Positions 45,218-52,512 of a DNA stretch of 64,000 nucleotides are shown one piece after another. Origin of the DNA: Pseudobutyrivibrio ruminis (lineage in GTDB: Bacteria; Bacillota; Clostridia; Lachnospirales; Lachnospiraceae). Position 1 is the first letter of the stretch, and each line of letters starts with the position of its first letter. The stretch covers positions 10,388-74,387 of the forward strand of contig SVER01000014.1 of NCBI GenBank assembly GCA_015057315.1, written 5' to 3'. The notes below the pieces were generated by a model, which was not told where the DNA came from, did not search any database, and saw nothing but the letters and a program-made list of their open reading frames with translations. The translations under genes and the position numbers were made by a program.

Positions 45218-46441
45218 TTATATCTGCTCTCCATTAAGCACAAATGTCTCATCTGGCTCAATTGGAACACATACACATTTCTTGCCGTCTACATAAGCTG
45301 TAGTAACATCCGCAGCCTTGCTTTCAGAAACCTTTACAACAATGTCAGGAATCTTGCCATCAGCTGTTTCTCCTGTAGCTTCCTTAAGCTGCTTTGTAAG
45401 GTCAACAACACGTTCTTTGAGCACGTTTTTTTCAACTCTAATTTCATTATTTTTAAGAGCCTTTTCGTCTAAGATTTCTTCCGCAAGTGGAAGCTGCTCT
45501 TCAAAATAGTTTTCAAAATTAGCCTGAATCTTTTCAACCTTCACATCAGAAAGTCCAGAATCTGTAAGGATATTTGCAACATCCTGTGGCTCTAATATAA
45601 TAGGCTCTTCAGGTCCTAAACGCTCTGCTTCAACAGTGATAAAATCAGAAAGATTCTGCTGGATATCAAGCTTTGTCTCAAGAGTCTCTTCAGTCTCTTC
45701 ACCAAGAGCCTGGTTAAGCATGTTGTTAAATGCATTCTTCTTTTGAGTAGTAGTCTTACGAGTGCCACAGCCGATGCAGTTCTCCCAGAACTCTACATGA
45801 GGCTCCTTGGTGTTCTTGGTGTATGCAAGGCATGCATGCAAATCAGTGGAACGGTCTGTAAAAGCAGGGAAAGTAAATGCAGTGTCCACAGGGCCTACAA
45901 CCCAATCTCTATCCCTTGCGCCGATGCGGTTTTCCTGCTCACGGTAGCCAAGCGCAGCCTTTGAAAGCTGAACAGGGCAGATGGCGCAGATGATGTATTC
46001 GTATACTTCCTCAGATTCATCTAATGCTAGGTTATCGCTAGTCTTCATAGGAACATCGTAAGTATCATGGAACAATACAATCAGATAGTTTCCAACATAA
46101 TCATATGTTTCGATAATACGATTGTAGTATTCAATAAGAAGCTTCTCATCCTGAAGGCCTGTCTCACGAAGCCTCATAAGTAAATCGTGGCCGCTTCCTT
46201 CTATTTCTGATTCTGGGTCAAATGGAAGCTCTAATAGATTGTTTCCAATAGTTCCAGACATGGCTTTGTTGGCAATCTCTAAATATTTATGAAATTCCTC
46301 ATCCTCAAGATTAAGGAAGGTCTCCTTAAAGGTAAGAACCATTTCCTTGTTGGCATCTACATAGCAGCCAACCATCTTGTCAAAGTTGACGGAATCCTTT
46401 TTAAAACGTCGCTTTATTTCATTTACTTCTTTTTTATTCAT
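45218..46441 (-). CDS. DUF4317-like conserved protein
   Basis: MNKKEVNEIKRRF, GCYVD, YDVPMKTSD, FTFPAFTDRSTD pattern, as recalled for this family. Confidence 0.75.
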   Translation of the reverse strand: MNKKEVNEIKRRFKKDSVNFDKMVGCYVDANKEMVLTFKETFLNLEDEEFHKYLEIANKAMSGTIGNNLLELPFDPESEIEGSGHDLLMRLRETGLQDEKLLIEYYNRIIETYDYVGNYLIVLFHDTYDVPMKTSDNLALDESEEVYEYIICAICPVQLSKAALGYREQENRIGARDRDWVVGPVDTAFTFPAFTDRSTDLHACLAYTKNTKEPHVEFWENCIGCGTRKTTTQKKNAFNNMLNQALGEETEETLETKLDIQQNLSDFITVEAERLGPEEPIILEPQDVANILTDSGLSDVKVEKIQANFENYFEEQLPLAEEILDEKALKNNEIRVEKNVLKERVVDLTKQLKEATGETADGKIPDIVVKVSESKAADVTTAYVDGKKCVCVPIEPDETFVLNGEQI

Positions 46442-46626
46442 TTAACTCTAACTCCTGTCTTTAAATGTAACGACTCTATTATAAGTTTGAAAAAAATGGA
46501 TAACAAGTCTTGATGTTTGGAATATTAAAAGTTTTACTCAAAAAAGGCAGGAATACTTTGAAAAGTATTAAGTAAGTAGTATATTTATGTGGAAAGAATT
46601 ACAAATAACAAAAAGGGAGAATTATT

Positions 46627-47184
46627 ATGGTTTTATTGTATGTATTGGCTTTTATTGTAATAGTTATATTGGCTTGGATTATAGCTGTATCTAATAGAAT
46701 GAAAGTTATGGAAGTAAAAATTGACGAGGCATCATCATCTATCGATGTAGCCCTTGAAAAAAGATATTCTGTTCTTTCAAAGCAGATGGATATCGTAAAG
46801 GGTGTGTGTTCTCATGAGCAGAAGCTATTATTTGAATCCATAAAGCTGCGCCAGGGAATGAATTTTGATGAGCAAAATGAAGCAATTGAAAAGGTCACTA
46901 AATTAGCTAACGGTATCAATGCATTGGCGGAAAACTATCCTGAAATAAAGACAAATGAGAACTTTGCAATTTTGCAAAAGAGTGTTAATGACACAGAAGA
47001 GCATCTCCAGGCTGCCAGGAGATTGTTCAATTCTAACGTATCTTCATTCAATCAGTATGTAGTAACTTTTCCTAATTCTATAGTTGCGGCTTTAGTGGGA
47101 AAGCAACAGAAAACATTTTTTGTTGCTGATGAACAAAGAAAAAAAGATGTGGATTTATCCATGGATTCTGTCAGCAATAATTAG
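46627..47184 (+). CDS. lemA: LemA family protein
   Basis: N-terminal TM, IDVALEKR, LAENYPEIK, QAARRLFNSNV, FPNSIVA. Confidence 0.9.
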   Translation: MVLLYVLAFIVIVILAWIIAVSNRMKVMEVKIDEASSSIDVALEKRYSVLSKQMDIVKGVCSHEQKLLFESIKLRQGMNFDEQNEAIEKVTKLANGINALAENYPEIKTNENFAILQKSVNDTEEHLQAARRLFNSNVSSFNQYVVTFPNSIVAALVGKQQKTFFVADEQRKKDVDLSMDSVSNN

Positions 47185-47192
47185 GAGAAAAC

Positions 47193-48143
47193 ATGTTATC
47201 AGTTAAAGAATTAAGTGAGAAGTTTAATAATTTAGATATAAGTACCAAACGCCTGATTGTGGTTTCAGGTTTCATACTTTTACTCTTTCTTATGGTGACA
47301 GGCTTGTTCGTCCCCTTGTTATTCATTCTACTTATACTATTTGGGGTGATGTCCAGCCGTTACTATAAAATCAAGAAAGCTGTTCAAAAGGATTTTAAGG
47401 AAAATCATTTGCAAAGGTTTTTACAGGAAATTTTTCCTGATGCAACTTATTTCCCAGACGGAAGTATAATAGATGTAAATGGATGCAGAGAATGTAATTT
47501 ATTTCCCGTGAAGAAGGAATGGTTTAAAACTGAGGATGGTCTTAAAATGACCTTCGGAAAAAATAACGATATATCATTGGAATATGTGGAAGTATATACC
47601 TACTTAATTAAACATGATGAGGATGGGGATGAATATAAAGAAACTCTTTTTAGAGGGGGCTTGTTTAAATATACATTCTTTAAGAAATTTAAAGATAATA
47701 TCTATGTTATTCCAAATAAAACAAAAAATGGTAAGCCTGTTCATGGCTTGCTAGGTGGCGAAAAGCCAGAGTTTAATCCATCTAAGGCTGAAAAGGATTT
47801 GCATGAAATACAGCTGGAGGATGTAGAATTTAATGAATTGTTTTCTGTTTTTTCAGCTAATGATGAGGAGTCCTTTTTTATTTTGACGCCTCAGTATATG
47901 AGTCTTATGAAAGACTTGTACAAAAAGCATGATGGAAAAATACGCTTTAAGTTTAGTGGCAATTATATGTTTATTGCTATCAGTGAAATGGACCTTTTTG
48001 ATTTTGATTTGGAATACAATAGTAATAGACAGTTTGATGAAGAAAAAACATTTGAAAAGTGTGTAAATCAGACGAAGGAAGAAATTAGGGGCTTGGAGGA
48101 ATTTGCCACGACCCTTGAACTTGGGGATAGTATTTTCTATTAA
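47193..48143 (+). CDS. DUF3137-like membrane protein
   Basis: Two N-terminal TMs, TLFRG, LEDVEFNELFSVF..ILTPQYM; follows lemA. Confidence 0.7.
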   Translation: MLSVKELSEKFNNLDISTKRLIVVSGFILLLFLMVTGLFVPLLFILLILFGVMSSRYYKIKKAVQKDFKENHLQRFLQEIFPDATYFPDGSIIDVNGCRECNLFPVKKEWFKTEDGLKMTFGKNNDISLEYVEVYTYLIKHDEDGDEYKETLFRGGLFKYTFFKKFKDNIYVIPNKTKNGKPVHGLLGGEKPEFNPSKAEKDLHEIQLEDVEFNELFSVFSANDEESFFILTPQYMSLMKDLYKKHDGKIRFKFSGNYMFIAISEMDLFDFDLEYNSNRQFDEEKTFEKCVNQTKEEIRGLEEFATTLELGDSIFY

Positions 48144-48186
48144 CTGAAAGAAATTAACCTGATATATAGAAAATGTTTCAGAAGAC

Positions 48187-48215
48187 TTGACTTTAATAGT
48201 TCAAATAACTATACT
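48187..48215 (+). promoter_or_regulatory. Sigma-A promoter of the asnS leader
   Basis: ttgact-N17-tatact. Confidence 0.7.
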
Positions 48216-48243
48216 TTACTCAAATAAAGAAAAGGGGACAATC

Positions 48244-48321
48244 ATGGCATTTACATCTATGCTTAATAATCTCAATAACAATAATAACAATAATTCCGTG
48301 AATAATAATCAGGGGATTTAA
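48244..48321 (+). CDS. Asn-rich leader peptide MAFTSMLNNLNNNNNNNSVNNNQGI (proposed asnL)
   Basis: RBS aaagggg; 12 of 25 codons are Asn, including a run of 7; upstream of asnS; not in the supplied ORF track. Confidence 0.85.
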   Translation: MAFTSMLNNLNNNNNNNSVNNNQGI

Positions 48322-48373
48322 TTTTATTGTGTTGATGAGATTTGAAGATTGTTCAAATATGTAAGAATTAGAA

Positions 48374-48410
48374 AGCCTCATCAAGCGCAAGTTTGATGGG
48401 GCTAATTTAT
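48374..48410 (+). terminator. Attenuator hairpin (3:4)
   Basis: agcctcatcaagc-GCAA-gtttgatggggct (13 bp, GNRA loop) followed by aatttatt. The left arm can alternatively pair with ttgatgag at 48332-48339. Confidence 0.75.
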
Positions 48411-48437
48411 TGCTAATAATTAGTGAGGAGAAAAGAT

Positions 48438-49838
48438 ATGAGTGTTAAAACAACAGACATTAGAACCCTTTCTAGAAACTTCAAAGAATATGGAGATAAG
48501 GAAGTAACTGTTTCTGGTTGGGTTCGCAATATGCGTGATTCAAAGACATTTGGATTCTTAGTACTTGCAGATGGTACTTTCTTTAATCCAGTACAGGTAG
48601 TTTTCAACCAGGATAAGATTGATAACTTTGACGAGGTTCGTCATCTTAATGTAGGTGCAGCAGTATACGTAACAGGTACAGTAGTGCTTACACCAGAGGC
48701 TAAGCAGCCATTTGAAATCCAGGCTACAAAGGTTGTAGTTGAAGGAAAATCTACACCAGATTATCCAATCCAGCCAAAGAGACATACAATGGAATACCTT
48801 CGTACACAGACACATCTTCGTGCACGTACAAACACATTCCAGGCAGTATTTCGCGTTCGTTCTCTTTGTGCATACGCTATTCACAAGTTCTTCCAGGAGC
48901 GTGATTTCGTATACGTACACACTCCACTTATCACAGGAAGCGACTGTGAGGGTGCAGGTGAGATGTTCCAGGTTACAACAATGGATCTTAACAACATCCC
49001 TAAGACAGAGGATGGCAAGGTAGATTTCTCACAGGATTTCTTCGGCCATGCTACAAACCTTACAGTATCAGGTCAGCTTAACGGTGAGACTTATGCTCAG
49101 GCATTTAAGAACATCTACACATTCGGTCCTACATTCCGTGCAGAGAACTCTAACACAACTCGTCATGCAGCAGAGTTCTGGATGATCGAGCCAGAGATTT
49201 CTTTCGCTGATCTTGAGGATGATATGGAACTTGCTGAAGATATGATTAAGTTCGTTATCAACTACGTTCTTGAGCATGCACCAGAGGAGATGGAATTCTT
49301 CAACAACTTCATCGATAAGGGACTTCTTGATAGATTACACCATGTTGCTACTTCTGATTTCGGACGTATCACATACACAGATGCTGTTGCAGAGCTTGAG
49401 AAGCACAACGATGAATTCGATTACAAGGTATCTTGGGGCTGCGACTTACAGACAGAGCACGAAAGATACTTAACAGAAAAGATTTTTGGCAAGCCTGTAT
49501 TCGTTACAGATTATCCAAAGGAAATCAAGGCCTTTTACATGAAGCTCAACGATGACGGCAAGACAGTAGCAGCTATGGACTGCCTTGTTCCTGGCATCGG
49601 AGAGATCATCGGTGGCTCACAGCGTGAGGACGACTACGATGTACTTCTTAAGAGAATGCAGGAATGCGGCCTTAAGGAAGAGGACTACCAGTTCTACCTT
49701 GACCTTCGTAAATACGGTAGCTCTCGCCATGCAGGCTTCGGACTCGGCTTCGAGCGCTGCGTAATGTACCTCACAGGAATGGGCAACATCCGTGACGTCA
49801 TCCCATTCCCACGTACAGTAGGTAATTGCGACTTGTAA
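48438..49838 (+). CDS. asnS: Asparaginyl-tRNA synthetase
   Basis: [71 protein letters not shown]. Start at 48438. Confidence 0.97.
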
Positions 49839-50241
49839 TCAAATTCGCACATGGACATGTGTGAATTTGATTGCCCAGAACTGCCAATTGCCGTAGGCAA
49901 TCTTCAATGGCAGTTCTTCCCACTGTAATCCGTAATCATTTCGCTGACCCATACATATCTTTCTAAGACACGCTTTCGCTCATGTCGTGCTCGTTGCCCT
50001 ACGTAAGGTGCTGCGTTGCACCACCTAAGTAGGGACGGCACTTTAAGGTCTTTAGAAAGACATGTATGTCTCAACTCAATGATTACTCACTTAATAACCC
50101 AAGCCGACAACATAACCTTGGTAAGCGCGAGCAGGGGGGCGCCATGCCTGACCATGGGTGGGTGCCCACGCCGGCGGGCTCCCATGGTTAGGTATGGAGG
50201 GTGCCCTGCGGGAGCACGGAACACTTGGGGGTCGGCGGATT
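49834..50241 (+). repeat. Cluster of four imperfect hairpins in the asnS-asnA spacer
   Basis: About 49834-49874, 49878-49916, 49932-50086 and 50103-50236; the last ends in cggatt before the asnA RBS. Confidence 0.8.
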
Positions 50242-50258
50242 TGACATAGGAGGAGAAT

Positions 50259-51269
50259 ATGAGCAAGATATACATTCCAGATGGATATGCTTCGGCACTT
50301 GATTTGAAAGAGACACAGATTGCTATTAAGAAGGTGAAGGATTTCTTCCAGGCACAGCTTACAGCGGAGCTTAATCTTCATCGTGTTACGGCTCCACTAT
50401 TTGTTGAGCCAGAGTCAGGTCTTAATGATAATTTGAATGGTGTGGAACGCCCAGTTGCTTTCGGTGTGAAGGAGCAGGGTGATAAAGAGGTAGAGGTTGT
50501 TCATTCACTTGCTAAGTGGAAGAGAATGGCCCTAGGCAGATATCATTTCAATGTAGGCGAAGGTCTTTACACTGATATGAACGCAATCCGTCGTGACGAG
50601 GACACTGATAATATTCATTCTATTTATGTGGATCAGTGGGATTGGGAGTGTATAATCGAAAAAGCTGATAGGAATGAGGAGACTCTTAAGAAGTACGTAA
50701 AGAGTGTTTATGCAGCACTTCGTGTCACAGAAAAATACATTGCAAATGCCTATGATTATGTGCAGTGCATTTTGCCAGAGGAGATTCATTTTATCACTAC
50801 TCAGGAGCTTGAGGATAGATGGCCTAATCTTTCTTCTAGTGAGAGGGAGTATGAAGCAGCTAAGGAATACGGCGCAATTTTCCTTATGAAGATTGGTGAT
50901 TTGCTTGAGTCAGGTCAGAAGCATGACGGCCGTGCTCCTGATTATGATGACTGGCAGTTAAATGGAGATATCATTGTGTATTATCCAGTTGATGATATTT
51001 CACTTGAGCTTTCATCCATGGGAATCAGAGTGGATGAGGATAGCCTTAAGAGTCAGCTTGAAAAGGCTGGCTGTGAGGATAGGGCTTCACTTCCATTCCA
51101 AAAGGCAATCCTTGAAAAGAAGCTTCCATATACAATTGGCGGTGGTATAGGACAGAGTCGTATCTGTATGTTCTTCCTTCGCAAGTGCCATATTGGTGAG
51201 GTTCAGTGTTCATTCTGGCCTGAGGAAGATATTAAATATGCTAGTGATAGAGGTGTTACAATTCTATAA
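50259..51269 (+). CDS. asnA: Aspartate-ammonia ligase (asparagine synthetase A)
   Basis: GLNDNLNGVERPV, VVHSLAKWKR, HSIYVDQWDWE, HDGRAPDYDDW, ELSSMGIRV, TIGGGIGQSR. Confidence 0.97.
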   Translation: MSKIYIPDGYASALDLKETQIAIKKVKDFFQAQLTAELNLHRVTAPLFVEPESGLNDNLNGVERPVAFGVKEQGDKEVEVVHSLAKWKRMALGRYHFNVGEGLYTDMNAIRRDEDTDNIHSIYVDQWDWECIIEKADRNEETLKKYVKSVYAALRVTEKYIANAYDYVQCILPEEIHFITTQELEDRWPNLSSSEREYEAAKEYGAIFLMKIGDLLESGQKHDGRAPDYDDWQLNGDIIVYYPVDDISLELSSMGIRVDEDSLKSQLEKAGCEDRASLPFQKAILEKKLPYTIGGGIGQSRICMFFLRKCHIGEVQCSFWPEEDIKYASDRGVTIL

Positions 51270-51316
51270 AATAAAATTATGCTTTACTTTTTTAGTGCTT
51301 TAGCGTAAAATAGTCG

Positions 51317-51345
51317 ATGGCCCTTTTTTAGGGCCATTTTATTGT
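51317..51345 (+). terminator. Intrinsic terminator after asnA
   Basis: atggccct-ttttt-agggccat followed by tttatt. Confidence 0.6.
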
Positions 51346-51376
51346 GTCTTTTTGATTTATGGTTCTTTACTTTAAA

Positions 51377-51394
51377 ACTTTAATGTGCTAAACT
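51377..51394. promoter_or_regulatory. Possible YerC/HisR-type autoregulatory box
   Basis: acTTTAatgtgcTAAAct upstream of yerC; resemblance to the predicted HisR motif is from memory. Confidence 0.35.
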
Positions 51395-51499
51395 GAATTC
51401 ATACAGAACGAACTGTGTGCAATTATGTGTTTTTTTAGATTATAAAGTTCCATTAGAATAATCGCATATTAAACGAGGAATCAATAGGAGTATATTATA

Positions 51500-51787
51500 A
51501 TGAACAAGAAACTTGAAACAGCAGAAATGGACGAGCTTTTGAGAGCTATTCTTAGTCTTGAAACCGTAGAGGAAGCCTACGAGTTTTTTGAAGATTTATG
51601 TACCGTAAACGAGATGGTCGCTATGAAGCAGCGATTCGAGGTTGCTAAAATGCTTCGAGAGGAGCGCACATATCAGGATATCGCTGACGAAACAGGTGCC
51701 AGCTCAGCTACTATCAGCCGTGTTAACCGTGCTCTTAACTATGGTAATGATGGTTATGATATGGTGCTTAAGAGAATCAGTCAGTAA
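51500..51787 (+). CDS. yerC: TrpR-like protein YerC/YecD
   Basis: FFEDLCTVNE..MKQRFEVAKML..TYQDIADETGASSATISRVNRAL; near pcrA. Confidence 0.9.
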   Translation: MNKKLETAEMDELLRAILSLETVEEAYEFFEDLCTVNEMVAMKQRFEVAKMLREERTYQDIADETGASSATISRVNRALNYGNDGYDMVLKRISQ

Positions 51788-51876
51788 TTGTTTAAATAGC
51801 ATAATTATTATGATAAAATGTAGGATGTAGTTTTTGAGACTACATCTTATTTTTTTGCTTTAATTGAGGAGGGAGT

Positions 51877-52512
51877 ATGGACAGCACAAAGAAAAGACTT
51901 AGCAATATTTTACATCAATTGGCAGAGATAGATTATGTCCATCCAGAGGACATCCCTAATATAGATTTGTATATGGATCAGGTGCTTACATTCCTTGACC
52001 AGGAGCTTGGTACTGTGCGTGAGGCCACTGAGGACAAGGCAATGACCAAGACCATGATTAACAACTACACTAAGAATCAGATTTTGCCATCGCCTGAGAA
52101 AAAGAAATATTCCAGGGACCACATGCTTAATCTGATTTTCATATATTATCTTAAGAACTTCCTTTCCATGAAGGATATTAAGAATATTCTAGATCCAATT
52201 AATGAGAGATATTTCGGGGTAGATGAGGGACTTGGCTTTTACGATATTTATTCCGCAATGGTTGGCTACGAGAGCAAGGTTGCCAATGATGTTACAAAGG
52301 ACATTATCCGAAAGTACAATCTTAGTAAGGAAGCCTTCTTAGATCAGGATGAGGAATCCAGGGCAGAGCTGCAGGAATTCACATTTATCTGCGAGCTTGC
52401 TTTCGATGTCTTTGTTAAAAAGATGATGATTGAACAGTTCGTGGCAGGTCGTGATTCAAAGGGTGAAGAGAAGAAAGAAAATCGTACTAAAGAAAATCCA
52501 AAGGAAAAGTAA
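51877..52512 (+). CDS. DUF1836-like protein
   Basis: IPNIDLYMDQV, MTKTMINNYTK..LPSPEKKKYSRDH. Confidence 0.8.
   Translation: MDSTKKRLSNILHQLAEIDYVHPEDIPNIDLYMDQVLTFLDQELGTVREATEDKAMTKTMINNYTKNQILPSPEKKKYSRDHMLNLIFIYYLKNFLSMKDIKNILDPINERYFGVDEGLGFYDIYSAMVGYESKVANDVTKDIIRKYNLSKEAFLDQDEESRAELQEFTFICELAFDVFVKKMMIEQFVAGRDSKGEEKKENRTKENPKEK

Follow-up and report, generated by a model that had tools for sequence, protein, structure and literature searches.

A probable asparagine-sensing leader-peptide attenuator ahead of asnS-asnA in Pseudobutyrivibrio ruminis

The window examined here is a stretch of 64,000 nucleotides from Pseudobutyrivibrio ruminis (contig SVER01000014.1 of assembly GCA_015057315.1, positions 10,388 to 74,387 of the forward strand), and coordinates given below are positions in this window. 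It carries asnS, which encodes asparaginyl-tRNA synthetase (AsnRS), followed on the same strand by asnA, which encodes the ammonia-dependent asparagine synthetase. Between a promoter and asnS lies a leader in which a short open reading frame (ORF) crowded with asparagine (Asn) codons overlaps one arm of a set of mutually exclusive RNA helices (Table 1). A sequence-only reading of this DNA had taken the element for an Asn-codon attenuator of asnS, and possibly of asnA. Our analysis supports this proposal: because conservation, coding signatures, structure and genomic context all agree, we consider it likely that asnS-asnA is controlled by transcription attenuation of the ribosome-mediated, leader-peptide kind, with charged tRNA-Asn as the signal that is sensed. 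Throughout, leaders linked to asnS are called class A, and leaders built on the same scaffold but located ahead of other genes are called class B; L-numbers denote comparison loci and G-numbers comparison genomes (for example, L156 and G136).

Every component that the sequence-only reading had named at the 5′ end of the element is present, namely the promoter with its TTGACT and TATACT hexamers separated by 17 nucleotides, the ribosome-binding site, and a 25-codon ORF with 12 Asn codons, seven of them in a row. Its positions for the pairing regions are exact, and its start for the ORF was off by about one nucleotide. Within 2.5 kb, no other site resembles a promoter as closely as this one. Among the 12 Asn codons of the leader, 10 are AAT and 2 are AAC. 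No other short ORF in the 3.4-Mb genome has seven or more Asn codons in any 10 consecutive codons (the leader has nine of 10), and no other convincing leader with an amino acid run was found in the same genome.

Downstream of the Asn codons, the leader RNA can adopt alternative pairings. The 3′ part of region 2 (48329-48339) doubles as the 5′ arm of an antiterminator, in which it pairs with nucleotides 48377-48388 to form a helix of 9-10 base pairs and -11.6 kcal/mol. The competing terminator hairpin (48374-48403), described earlier as a 13-base-pair GNRA-capped hairpin before an A/U tract, indeed has 13 base pairs, six of which are G-C, and a GCAA loop. This hairpin is worth -21.3 kcal/mol. 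The sequence after it, AATTTATTG, makes a weak U-tract, with five U residues among the eight nucleotides 3′ of the stem. With -22.6 kcal/mol for the long 1:2 hairpin, the energies of the three helices fall in the same order as those of the Escherichia coli trp leader. The apical hairpin of 1:2, together with the U-rich stretch that follows it, could possibly serve as a pause site for RNA polymerase.

Table 1. Features of the asnS-asnA locus in window coordinates, with the class B members among the comparison loci in the last row (SD, Shine-Dalgarno sequence; MFE, minimum free energy)
Feature	Position	Strand	Remarks
Sigma-70-type promoter	48187-48215	+	TTGACT (-35), 17-nucleotide spacer, TATACT (-10); 10/12 matches
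Leader SD	48234-48237	+	GGGG within AAAGGGGAC; 6 nucleotides 5′ of leader ATG
Leader ORF	48244-48321	+	25 sense codons and TAA; peptide MAFTSMLNNLNNNNNNNSVNNNQGI; ATG at 48244, TAA at 48319-48321
Asn codon starts	48265, 48268, 48274-48292 (seven consecutive), 48301-48307 (three)	+	
Region 1 (5′ arm of long 1:2 hairpin)	48268-48287	+	wholly Asn and Leu codons; from MFE folds
Apical hairpin of 1:2	48292-48318	+	AAUUCC.GUGA...UCA.GGGAUU; AAU AAU AAU in or beside loop; from MFE folds
Region 2 (3′ arm of 1:2)	48324-48342	+	ttattgtgttga at 48324-48335; ttgatgag at 48332-48339
Region 3 (terminator 5′ arm)	48374-48386	+	ctcatcaa at 48377-48384
Region 4 (terminator 3′ arm)	48391-48403	+	GCAA loop at 48387-48390
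Degenerate U-tract	48404-48412	+	AAUUUAUUG
asnS, asparaginyl-tRNA synthetase	48438-49838	+	466 amino acids; orthologues at E = 0 throughout genus; SD GAGGAG at 48425-48430
asnS-asnA spacer	49839-50258	+	420 nucleotides; lengthened by G+C-rich hairpin repeats of a dispersed type, in three kinds
asnA, ammonia-dependent asparagine synthetase	50259-51269	+	336 amino acids
Class B members (comparison loci)	L086:1420-1680; L116, L124, L130, L132, L135, L136, L141, L142, L144, L145, L149, L153, L048, L154, L156, L169, L170		

The 231-nucleotide leader is unusually stable (z = -6.5, with none of 200 shuffled sequences as stable), and its MFE fold consists of the long 1:2 hairpin capped by the apical stem, followed by the terminator. 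The expected switch was modeled by folding the transcript only to position 48388, where region 4 has not yet emerged, and by masking a 30-nucleotide ribosome footprint with an Asn codon in the A site. When no ribosome is present, 18 pairs of 1:2 and zero pairs of 2:3 are predicted. When the footprint is placed on any of Asn codons 1-11, the 1:2 helix disappears or is reduced to seven pairs, and 2:3 gains 9-10 pairs. This is a thermodynamic sketch and not a kinetic simulation, but the predicted response is the behavior that a trp-type attenuator requires. Alternative folds and footprint masking agree with the earlier proposal that helices 1:2, 2:3 and 3:4 exclude one another.

Duplex comparisons are less sharp. 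For 1:2, cognate arms pair at -14.6 kcal/mol versus -11.2 kcal/mol for non-cognate arms, which lends the helix modest support, and the cognate arm is the best partner in six of 13 rows. The consensus pairs of 1:2 could not be recovered by voting on the MAFFT alignment, because the register of this helix differs between the classes. A further helix, "P0", which joins the region of the leader start to the spacer after region 2, occurs in most MFE folds; its cognate and non-cognate duplexes differ only weakly (-9.0 versus -7.0 kcal/mol), and we do not claim it.

Comparison within the genus reveals signatures of coding and of RNA structure in the leader. A BLAST survey of 34 Pseudobutyrivibrio species, of which 23 have good-quality genomes, located the leader in 27 species and in 20 of the good-quality genomes. 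The cultured strains P. xylanivorans DSM 14809 (L123) and P. ruminis DSM 9787 (L146) are among the carriers. In the asnS-linked copies, the leader spans 24-33 codons, of which 10-14 specify Asn, and its peptide retains the form M..LNNLNNNNNNSVNNNQGI. Among 24 distinct asnS-linked sequences, departures from the majority codon in the Asn columns comprise 10 variant types at the third codon position, versus two and three types at the first and second positions, respectively. Differences in codon number between species are in-frame, such that insertions and deletions span whole codons. The ATG and SD occur in nearly all members, and the leader SD remains purine-rich (AAGGAG or AAGGGG) across the genus alignment. 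The promoter hexamers, SD and terminator are conserved in the genus; both hexamers are kept in every class A relative and in most class B relatives.

Structural conservation was scored in an alignment of 20 sequences, a check that the sequence-only reading had suggested and that gave a divided answer. For the apical stem and the terminator, some double changes are evident, and 97.3% of their cells are paired, compared with 27-54% when partners are slid. Specifically, pairs 13-38 and 14-37 of the apical stem (numbering of alignment A3) are changed on both sides with 95% of cells paired, and 98.8% of terminator cells are paired across the 20 sequences. The 2:3 helix gave a different result, which is considered below among the difficulties.

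In two of the more divergent species (L084/L023 and L085/L021), the leader ORF is longer, with the peptide ..NNNQGINFxVxDEI, and crosses region 2. The position at which most species carry the early-ending TAA is occupied by AAT in both. These leaders represent a cleaner version of the classical arrangement.

At the sequence level, the element holds all of the parts that such an attenuator needs: an ORF with an SD and start codon, enrichment of the cognate codon, an intrinsic terminator, a 2:3 antiterminator, and a region 1 that overlaps the codons. Moreover, the genes at stake are those for AsnRS and asparagine synthetase A, the two that raise the level of Asn-tRNA. In the model that we favor, transcription would start a few bases past the -10 box, near 48222, and a ribosome would then begin to translate the 25-codon leader. 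When Asn-tRNA is plentiful, the ribosome would pass the Asn codons, reach the stop codon and leave or, in the older forms of the leader, translate across region 2. Regions 1 and 2 (48268-48287 and 48324-48342) would then pair, region 3 would be free for region 4, and the resulting terminator would end most transcripts before asnS. When Asn-tRNA is scarce, the ribosome would stall at an Asn codon of region 1 or the apical loop and thereby cover region 1. Region 2 would take region 3 as soon as it is made, the terminator would not form, and polymerase would read into asnS and asnA, such that additional AsnRS and asparagine would restore Asn-tRNA. If the leader is not translated at all, 1:2 would form and transcription would terminate. 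Stalling, read-through and timing are the parts of this model that we infer.

The scaffold of the asnS leader is not confined to asnS. Genomes of 185,579 species were scanned for its pattern, and a covariance model was built from the core of the element; either approach places the scaffold ahead of other genes in Butyrivibrio, in Pseudobutyrivibrio and in no fewer than five further genera of the Lachnospiraceae. These class B leaders, an apparently undescribed family of attenuators, precede genes that encode a fusion of GNAT and S-adenosylmethionine (SAM)-methyltransferase domains (429-432 amino acids), single methyltransferases, GNATs, and a nucleosidase-like protein. Common to both classes are the promoter, the leader ORF, a long hairpin with a CCCGUGAAU..CAGGGG apex, GAUGAG, CCUCAUCA and the terminator; the class B family has no Rfam entry. 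One pattern match from Pirellulales (L128) was rejected as a chance occurrence that lacks a leader ORF. Class B leaders have 29-40 codons, and in most of them the ORF passes through region 2 and ends a few codons later. They contain only 1-9 Asn codons (1-2 in L048 and L156), versus 10-14 in the asnS-linked copies, and Asn enrichment is thus specific to the copies ahead of asnS.

Class B members also help to separate constraints on the peptide from constraints on the RNA. In the diverged members, the leader frame contains zero stop codons over a 96-nucleotide interval between RNA landmarks, versus 1-4 and 4-12 in the other two frames, and two independent three-nucleotide insertions are present in the apical loop (L124 and L141). 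The stop-free frame and the loop insertions indicate that the reading frame of the leader is real. On the RNA side, regions 1 and 3 have CUCAUCA in common, regions 2 and 4 have UGAUGAG in common, and the GAUGAG core of region 2 is found in all members with the usual motifs. Because the ribosome would read GAUGAG in a different frame in L141 and L145, what has been preserved is the RNA and not the peptide. In L156, region 3 has CCUUAUC in place of CCUCAUC, and regions 2 and 4 each carry the corresponding GAUAAGG in place of GAUGAGG. Together with the double changes in the apical stem and terminator, these features indicate that the helices are real as well.

How might the two classes be related? 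The asnS leader is probably an older class B scaffold that was copied ahead of asnS and whose 5′ arm was filled with Asn codons, a direction of history that we infer. A more speculative extension, which we regard as possible but doubtful, is that class B leaders are attenuators that induce the GNAT, SAM-methyltransferase and nucleosidase-like genes when translation or an aminoacyl-tRNA synthetase is inhibited, acting through the V-N-x-x-Q-G/apical-hairpin core, and that the asnS leader was exapted from them. If true, then Pseudobutyrivibrio would have made a switch for responding to xenobiotics into an amino acid sensor simply by multiplying Asn codons in the 5′ arm.

Several observations weigh against the attenuator model. 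First, seven Pseudobutyrivibrio species have no such element, which indicates that it is dispensable. Second, the 20 aligned sequences do not differ in the 2:3 helix, which hence shows no covariation there, although such invariance by itself counts neither for nor against the pairing; the covariation that supports it comes from a single diverged member, the L156 locus described above, with L170 being compatible. Third, the class A stop codon, here and in most copies, lies 10 nucleotides ahead of the core of region 2, such that a ribosome at the stop codon would not cover region 2. Naive masking with the ribosome at this position even predicts formation of 2:3. Thus, termination under Asn sufficiency needs prompt release of the ribosome and refolding of 1:2. 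Fourth, the interrupted U-tract of this genome (AAUUUAUUG) means that termination may be inefficient or dependent on factors. Finally, class B leaders are not rich in Asn, and the scaffold itself may respond to other forms of ribosome stalling.

This last point leads to an alternative in which the leader is a sensor of general translation stress (for example, caused by antibiotics) that is not specific for Asn. Stalling would occur at the V-N-x-x-Q-G/apical-hairpin portion, and the copy ahead of asnS would have inherited this behavior. The location of the same scaffold ahead of GNAT, SAM-methyltransferase and nucleosidase-like genes, with leaders that have as few as one or two Asn codons, fits this idea, and such genes are typical targets of drug-induced leader attenuation in Firmicutes, where ermK, cat, bmrCD and vmlR are regulated in this manner. 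However, only the asnS-linked copies hold 10-14 Asn codons, kept by variation confined to the third position, and the pair of genes that they control is precisely the pair that raises Asn-tRNA. Furthermore, because the apical-hairpin pairs covary, conservation of V-N..Q-G reflects at least in part a constraint on the RNA. We therefore judge this explanation to be improbable for the asnS leader, and note that sensing of stress and sensing of Asn are not mutually exclusive.

A second alternative, likewise improbable in our estimation, is that the element in this genome is a decayed remnant whose hairpin no longer terminates transcription, leaving asnS constitutively expressed. The sequence-only reading had called the U-tract weak, which is true of AAUUUAUUG in the window; many relatives carry canonical T6-T7 tracts (TTTTTTT, TTTTTT or TATTTTT is seen at this position), and weakness of the tract is a trait of this species group and not of the element. 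The same tail is found in three species (L003-L005, L061 and L062), in which the rest of the element is intact and identical or nearly so. Five U residues still remain within eight nucleotides of the stem. In addition, hairpins with imperfect U-tracts can terminate transcription in Firmicutes with the aid of NusA or NusG.

Somewhat harder to sustain is the proposal of a structured RNA switch (a riboswitch, or an RNA to which a tRNA or protein binds), with the long hairpin and its conserved loop, AAUAAUAAU, as the sensor and the ORF as incidental. The fold is very stable, conservation of the 1:2 hairpin and its apical stem at the RNA level is accompanied by some covariation, and the loop displays Asn codons as the specifier loop of a T-box would. 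Nevertheless, an incidental ORF would not be expected to have a nearly universal ATG and SD, to stay open over 96 nucleotides in diverged members whose other frames are full of stops, or to change by whole codons, including the loop insertions in L124 and L141, and by third-position variation at Asn codons. The number of Asn codons also tracks the gene that is regulated, and neither a T-box nor another Rfam family matches. These points make the RNA-switch explanation quite unlikely. The weakest candidate, raised in the sequence-only reading, is translational control by hiding of the asnS SD: CCUCAU (48376-48381) is complementary to GUGAGG (48423-48428) in this genome, but GTGAGG is present only in the closest relatives of the window (others have TAATAAGGAG or a different sequence), the distance from the terminator to asnS varies from ~25 to ~225 nucleotides among species with unrelated inserts, and the pairing is absent from the MFE fold, making this mechanism very improbable.

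Having set these alternatives beside the attenuator model, we return to its context among other asnS genes. The region from 46000 to 52000 of the window was scanned with the 4227 models of Rfam 15 at E ≤ 10, and no T-box (RF00230) was detected in it, in agreement with the earlier remark that none is visible. Similarly, no described leader family (Trp, His, Leu, Thr, Phe and others) matched this region at the same threshold. The only three matches, Spot_42 on the opposite strand, PISRT1 and snoR1, are at chance level. The Spot_42 match (48367-48481, minus strand, 22.6 bits versus a gathering score of 80, E = 0.53) arises from the reverse complement of the terminator hairpin and was dismissed as chance. 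A second scan, at the gathering threshold, covered 20 related Lachnospiraceae asnS loci and yielded no T-box; the only RNAs it reported were Clostridiales-1 RNAs in one locus. The whole genome has three T-box matches (C29:99024-99265, C33:10420-10619 and C5:322-556), one of which is above the Rfam cut-off, and T-box control appears to be sparse in this organism. Thus, the claim that an attenuator stands here instead of a T-box holds insofar as no T-box is present, but the contrast that it implies is weak, given that none of the 20 related loci has one and that the genome has only three matches.

A search for Asn-rich ORFs upstream of asnS elsewhere in the family had also been suggested. Beyond the 27 Pseudobutyrivibrio species, the genera covered here yielded one further case. 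In 28 of the 29 other genera whose asnS upstream regions were read, there is no Asn-rich upstream ORF and the leaders are mostly short. When 400 other genera, represented by one genome apiece, were searched with the leader by BLAST, every match apart from G136 was of low complexity and fell on runs of Asn within Asn-rich proteins. In this other Lachnospiraceae genus (L059:1464-1680), a leader of unrelated sequence, MRVWMMTMEAMNNSNNNNQFGNNNHLSG.., is located ~100 nucleotides before asnS. Its peptide (..MNNSNNNNQFGNNNH.. / ..MEAMNNSNNNNQFGNNNH..) again comes with AAU AAU AAU in a hairpin loop, and the leader is followed by a strong terminator, GGCAGCGGA..UCCGCUGCCUUUUU. An antiterminator was looked for in this leader and none was identified. 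The genus comprises only two nearly identical species and hence offers no comparative information. From its sequence, the G136 leader appears to be an independent case of an Asn leader ahead of asnS.

The reach of the leader into asnA depends on the architecture of the operon. In every locus of the genus that is long enough to show it, asnA adjoins asnS on the same strand, with a gap that ranges from 19-23 nucleotides (L015, L018 and L023) to the 420 nucleotides seen in the window. No promoter-like site was found on the + strand of the spacer between the two genes (49839-50258). We consider asnA to be probably co-transcribed with asnS, and hence under the control of the leader. Three strongly folding segments of the spacer (~19-81, 88-226 and 267-391) have 17 further matches across the genome, and these repeats constitute a REP/MITE-like family of elements in a genome of low G+C content. 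A riboswitch within this G+C-rich spacer was considered and ruled out, given that the sequences are dispersed repeats with 17 other copies. In several Pseudobutyrivibrio species (L009, L010, L011 and L012), a G+C-rich insert of 100-190 nucleotides (e.g. GTGACGCGCGCGGAAAGGAAGGACCTTCGG..) lies between the leader terminator and the start of asnS, and these inserts are probably further copies of dispersed repeats. Directly 5′ of the asnS promoter, the window carries a LemA-family gene (185 amino acids) and a DUF3137 gene (316 amino acids) at 46627-48143. The upstream context of asnS differs in other species of the genus; in L016 and L022, for example, asnS comes right after another gene.

Textbook cases of leader-peptide attenuation concern Trp, His, Leu, Thr, Phe and Ile/Val, and the mechanism is also known from two sets of synthetase genes, pheST and hisS. 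Like the classical attenuators trpL, hisL, leuL, thrL, pheL and ilvL, the asnS leader has four regions with the regulatory codons in region 1, and an untranslated leader is predicted to terminate. It differs from them in matching no Rfam leader family, in its specificity for Asn, and in a stop codon that is mostly located before rather than within region 2. Furthermore, the other members of its probable parent family are not enriched in any one codon.

In many Bacillota, asnS and asnA are controlled by T-boxes with an Asn specifier (AAC). The predicted output of the asnS leader is the same, in that a shortage of charged tRNA-Asn would let transcription continue into asnS or asnA. In the T-box, however, tRNA is bound directly, whereas the sensor proposed here is the translating ribosome, and the asnS leader has no Stem I, specifier loop or T-box sequence. 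The drug-inducible leaders of ermK, cat, bmrB-bmrCD, vmlR and yxjB operate on a related principle, by which a ribosome stalled in a short ORF frees an antiterminator, and the class B relatives resemble them further by being located before putative modifying enzymes. For the asnS leader, unlike these systems, the codon content implies that the trigger would be a lack of Asn-tRNA and not a drug; no sequence relation to these systems was found, although no test was aimed at one. Class B leaders are a lead of their own, and may amount to an inducible system that governs modifying enzymes.

The closest precedents are the pheM leader of E. coli pheST and, in bacilli, the His-codon leader that precedes hisZ and paralogues of hisS (Naville and Gautheret, 2010; PMC2965389). 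In both, as in the asnS leader, a short ORF devoted to one amino acid is joined to a terminator/antiterminator switch that controls the cognate synthetase gene, and the examples in bacilli demonstrate that such synthetase leaders exist in Firmicutes. The asnS leader is set apart from both by its use of Asn, the presence of the biosynthetic gene asnA in the operon, the lack of sequence similarity and a host among rumen Lachnospiraceae. In addition, its ORF lies inside a single long hairpin, with three regulatory codons in the apical loop. The earlier reading was aware of no poly-Asn attenuator, and none is described in the literature reached by a full-text search, which did not cover the 2010 attenuator survey (Lopatovskaya et al., Mol Biol 44:128).

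If confirmed, the asnS leader would add one amino acid, and an operon that unites a synthetase with biosynthesis, to the list of systems controlled by attenuation, and would place an attenuator in the Lachnospiraceae, gut and rumen bacteria whose gene regulation has been little studied. It also affords an unusually clear view of how a sensor may originate. Ahead of unrelated genes, this scaffold holds few Asn codons, which suggests that an expansion of these codons was all that was needed to acquire specificity. As judged from the sequences compared here, the mechanism would be the classical one, and what would be new relative to the known attenuators is the specificity for Asn, the pairing of a synthetase with a synthase in the regulated operon, and a visible origin from a family of attenuators that are not rich in Asn.

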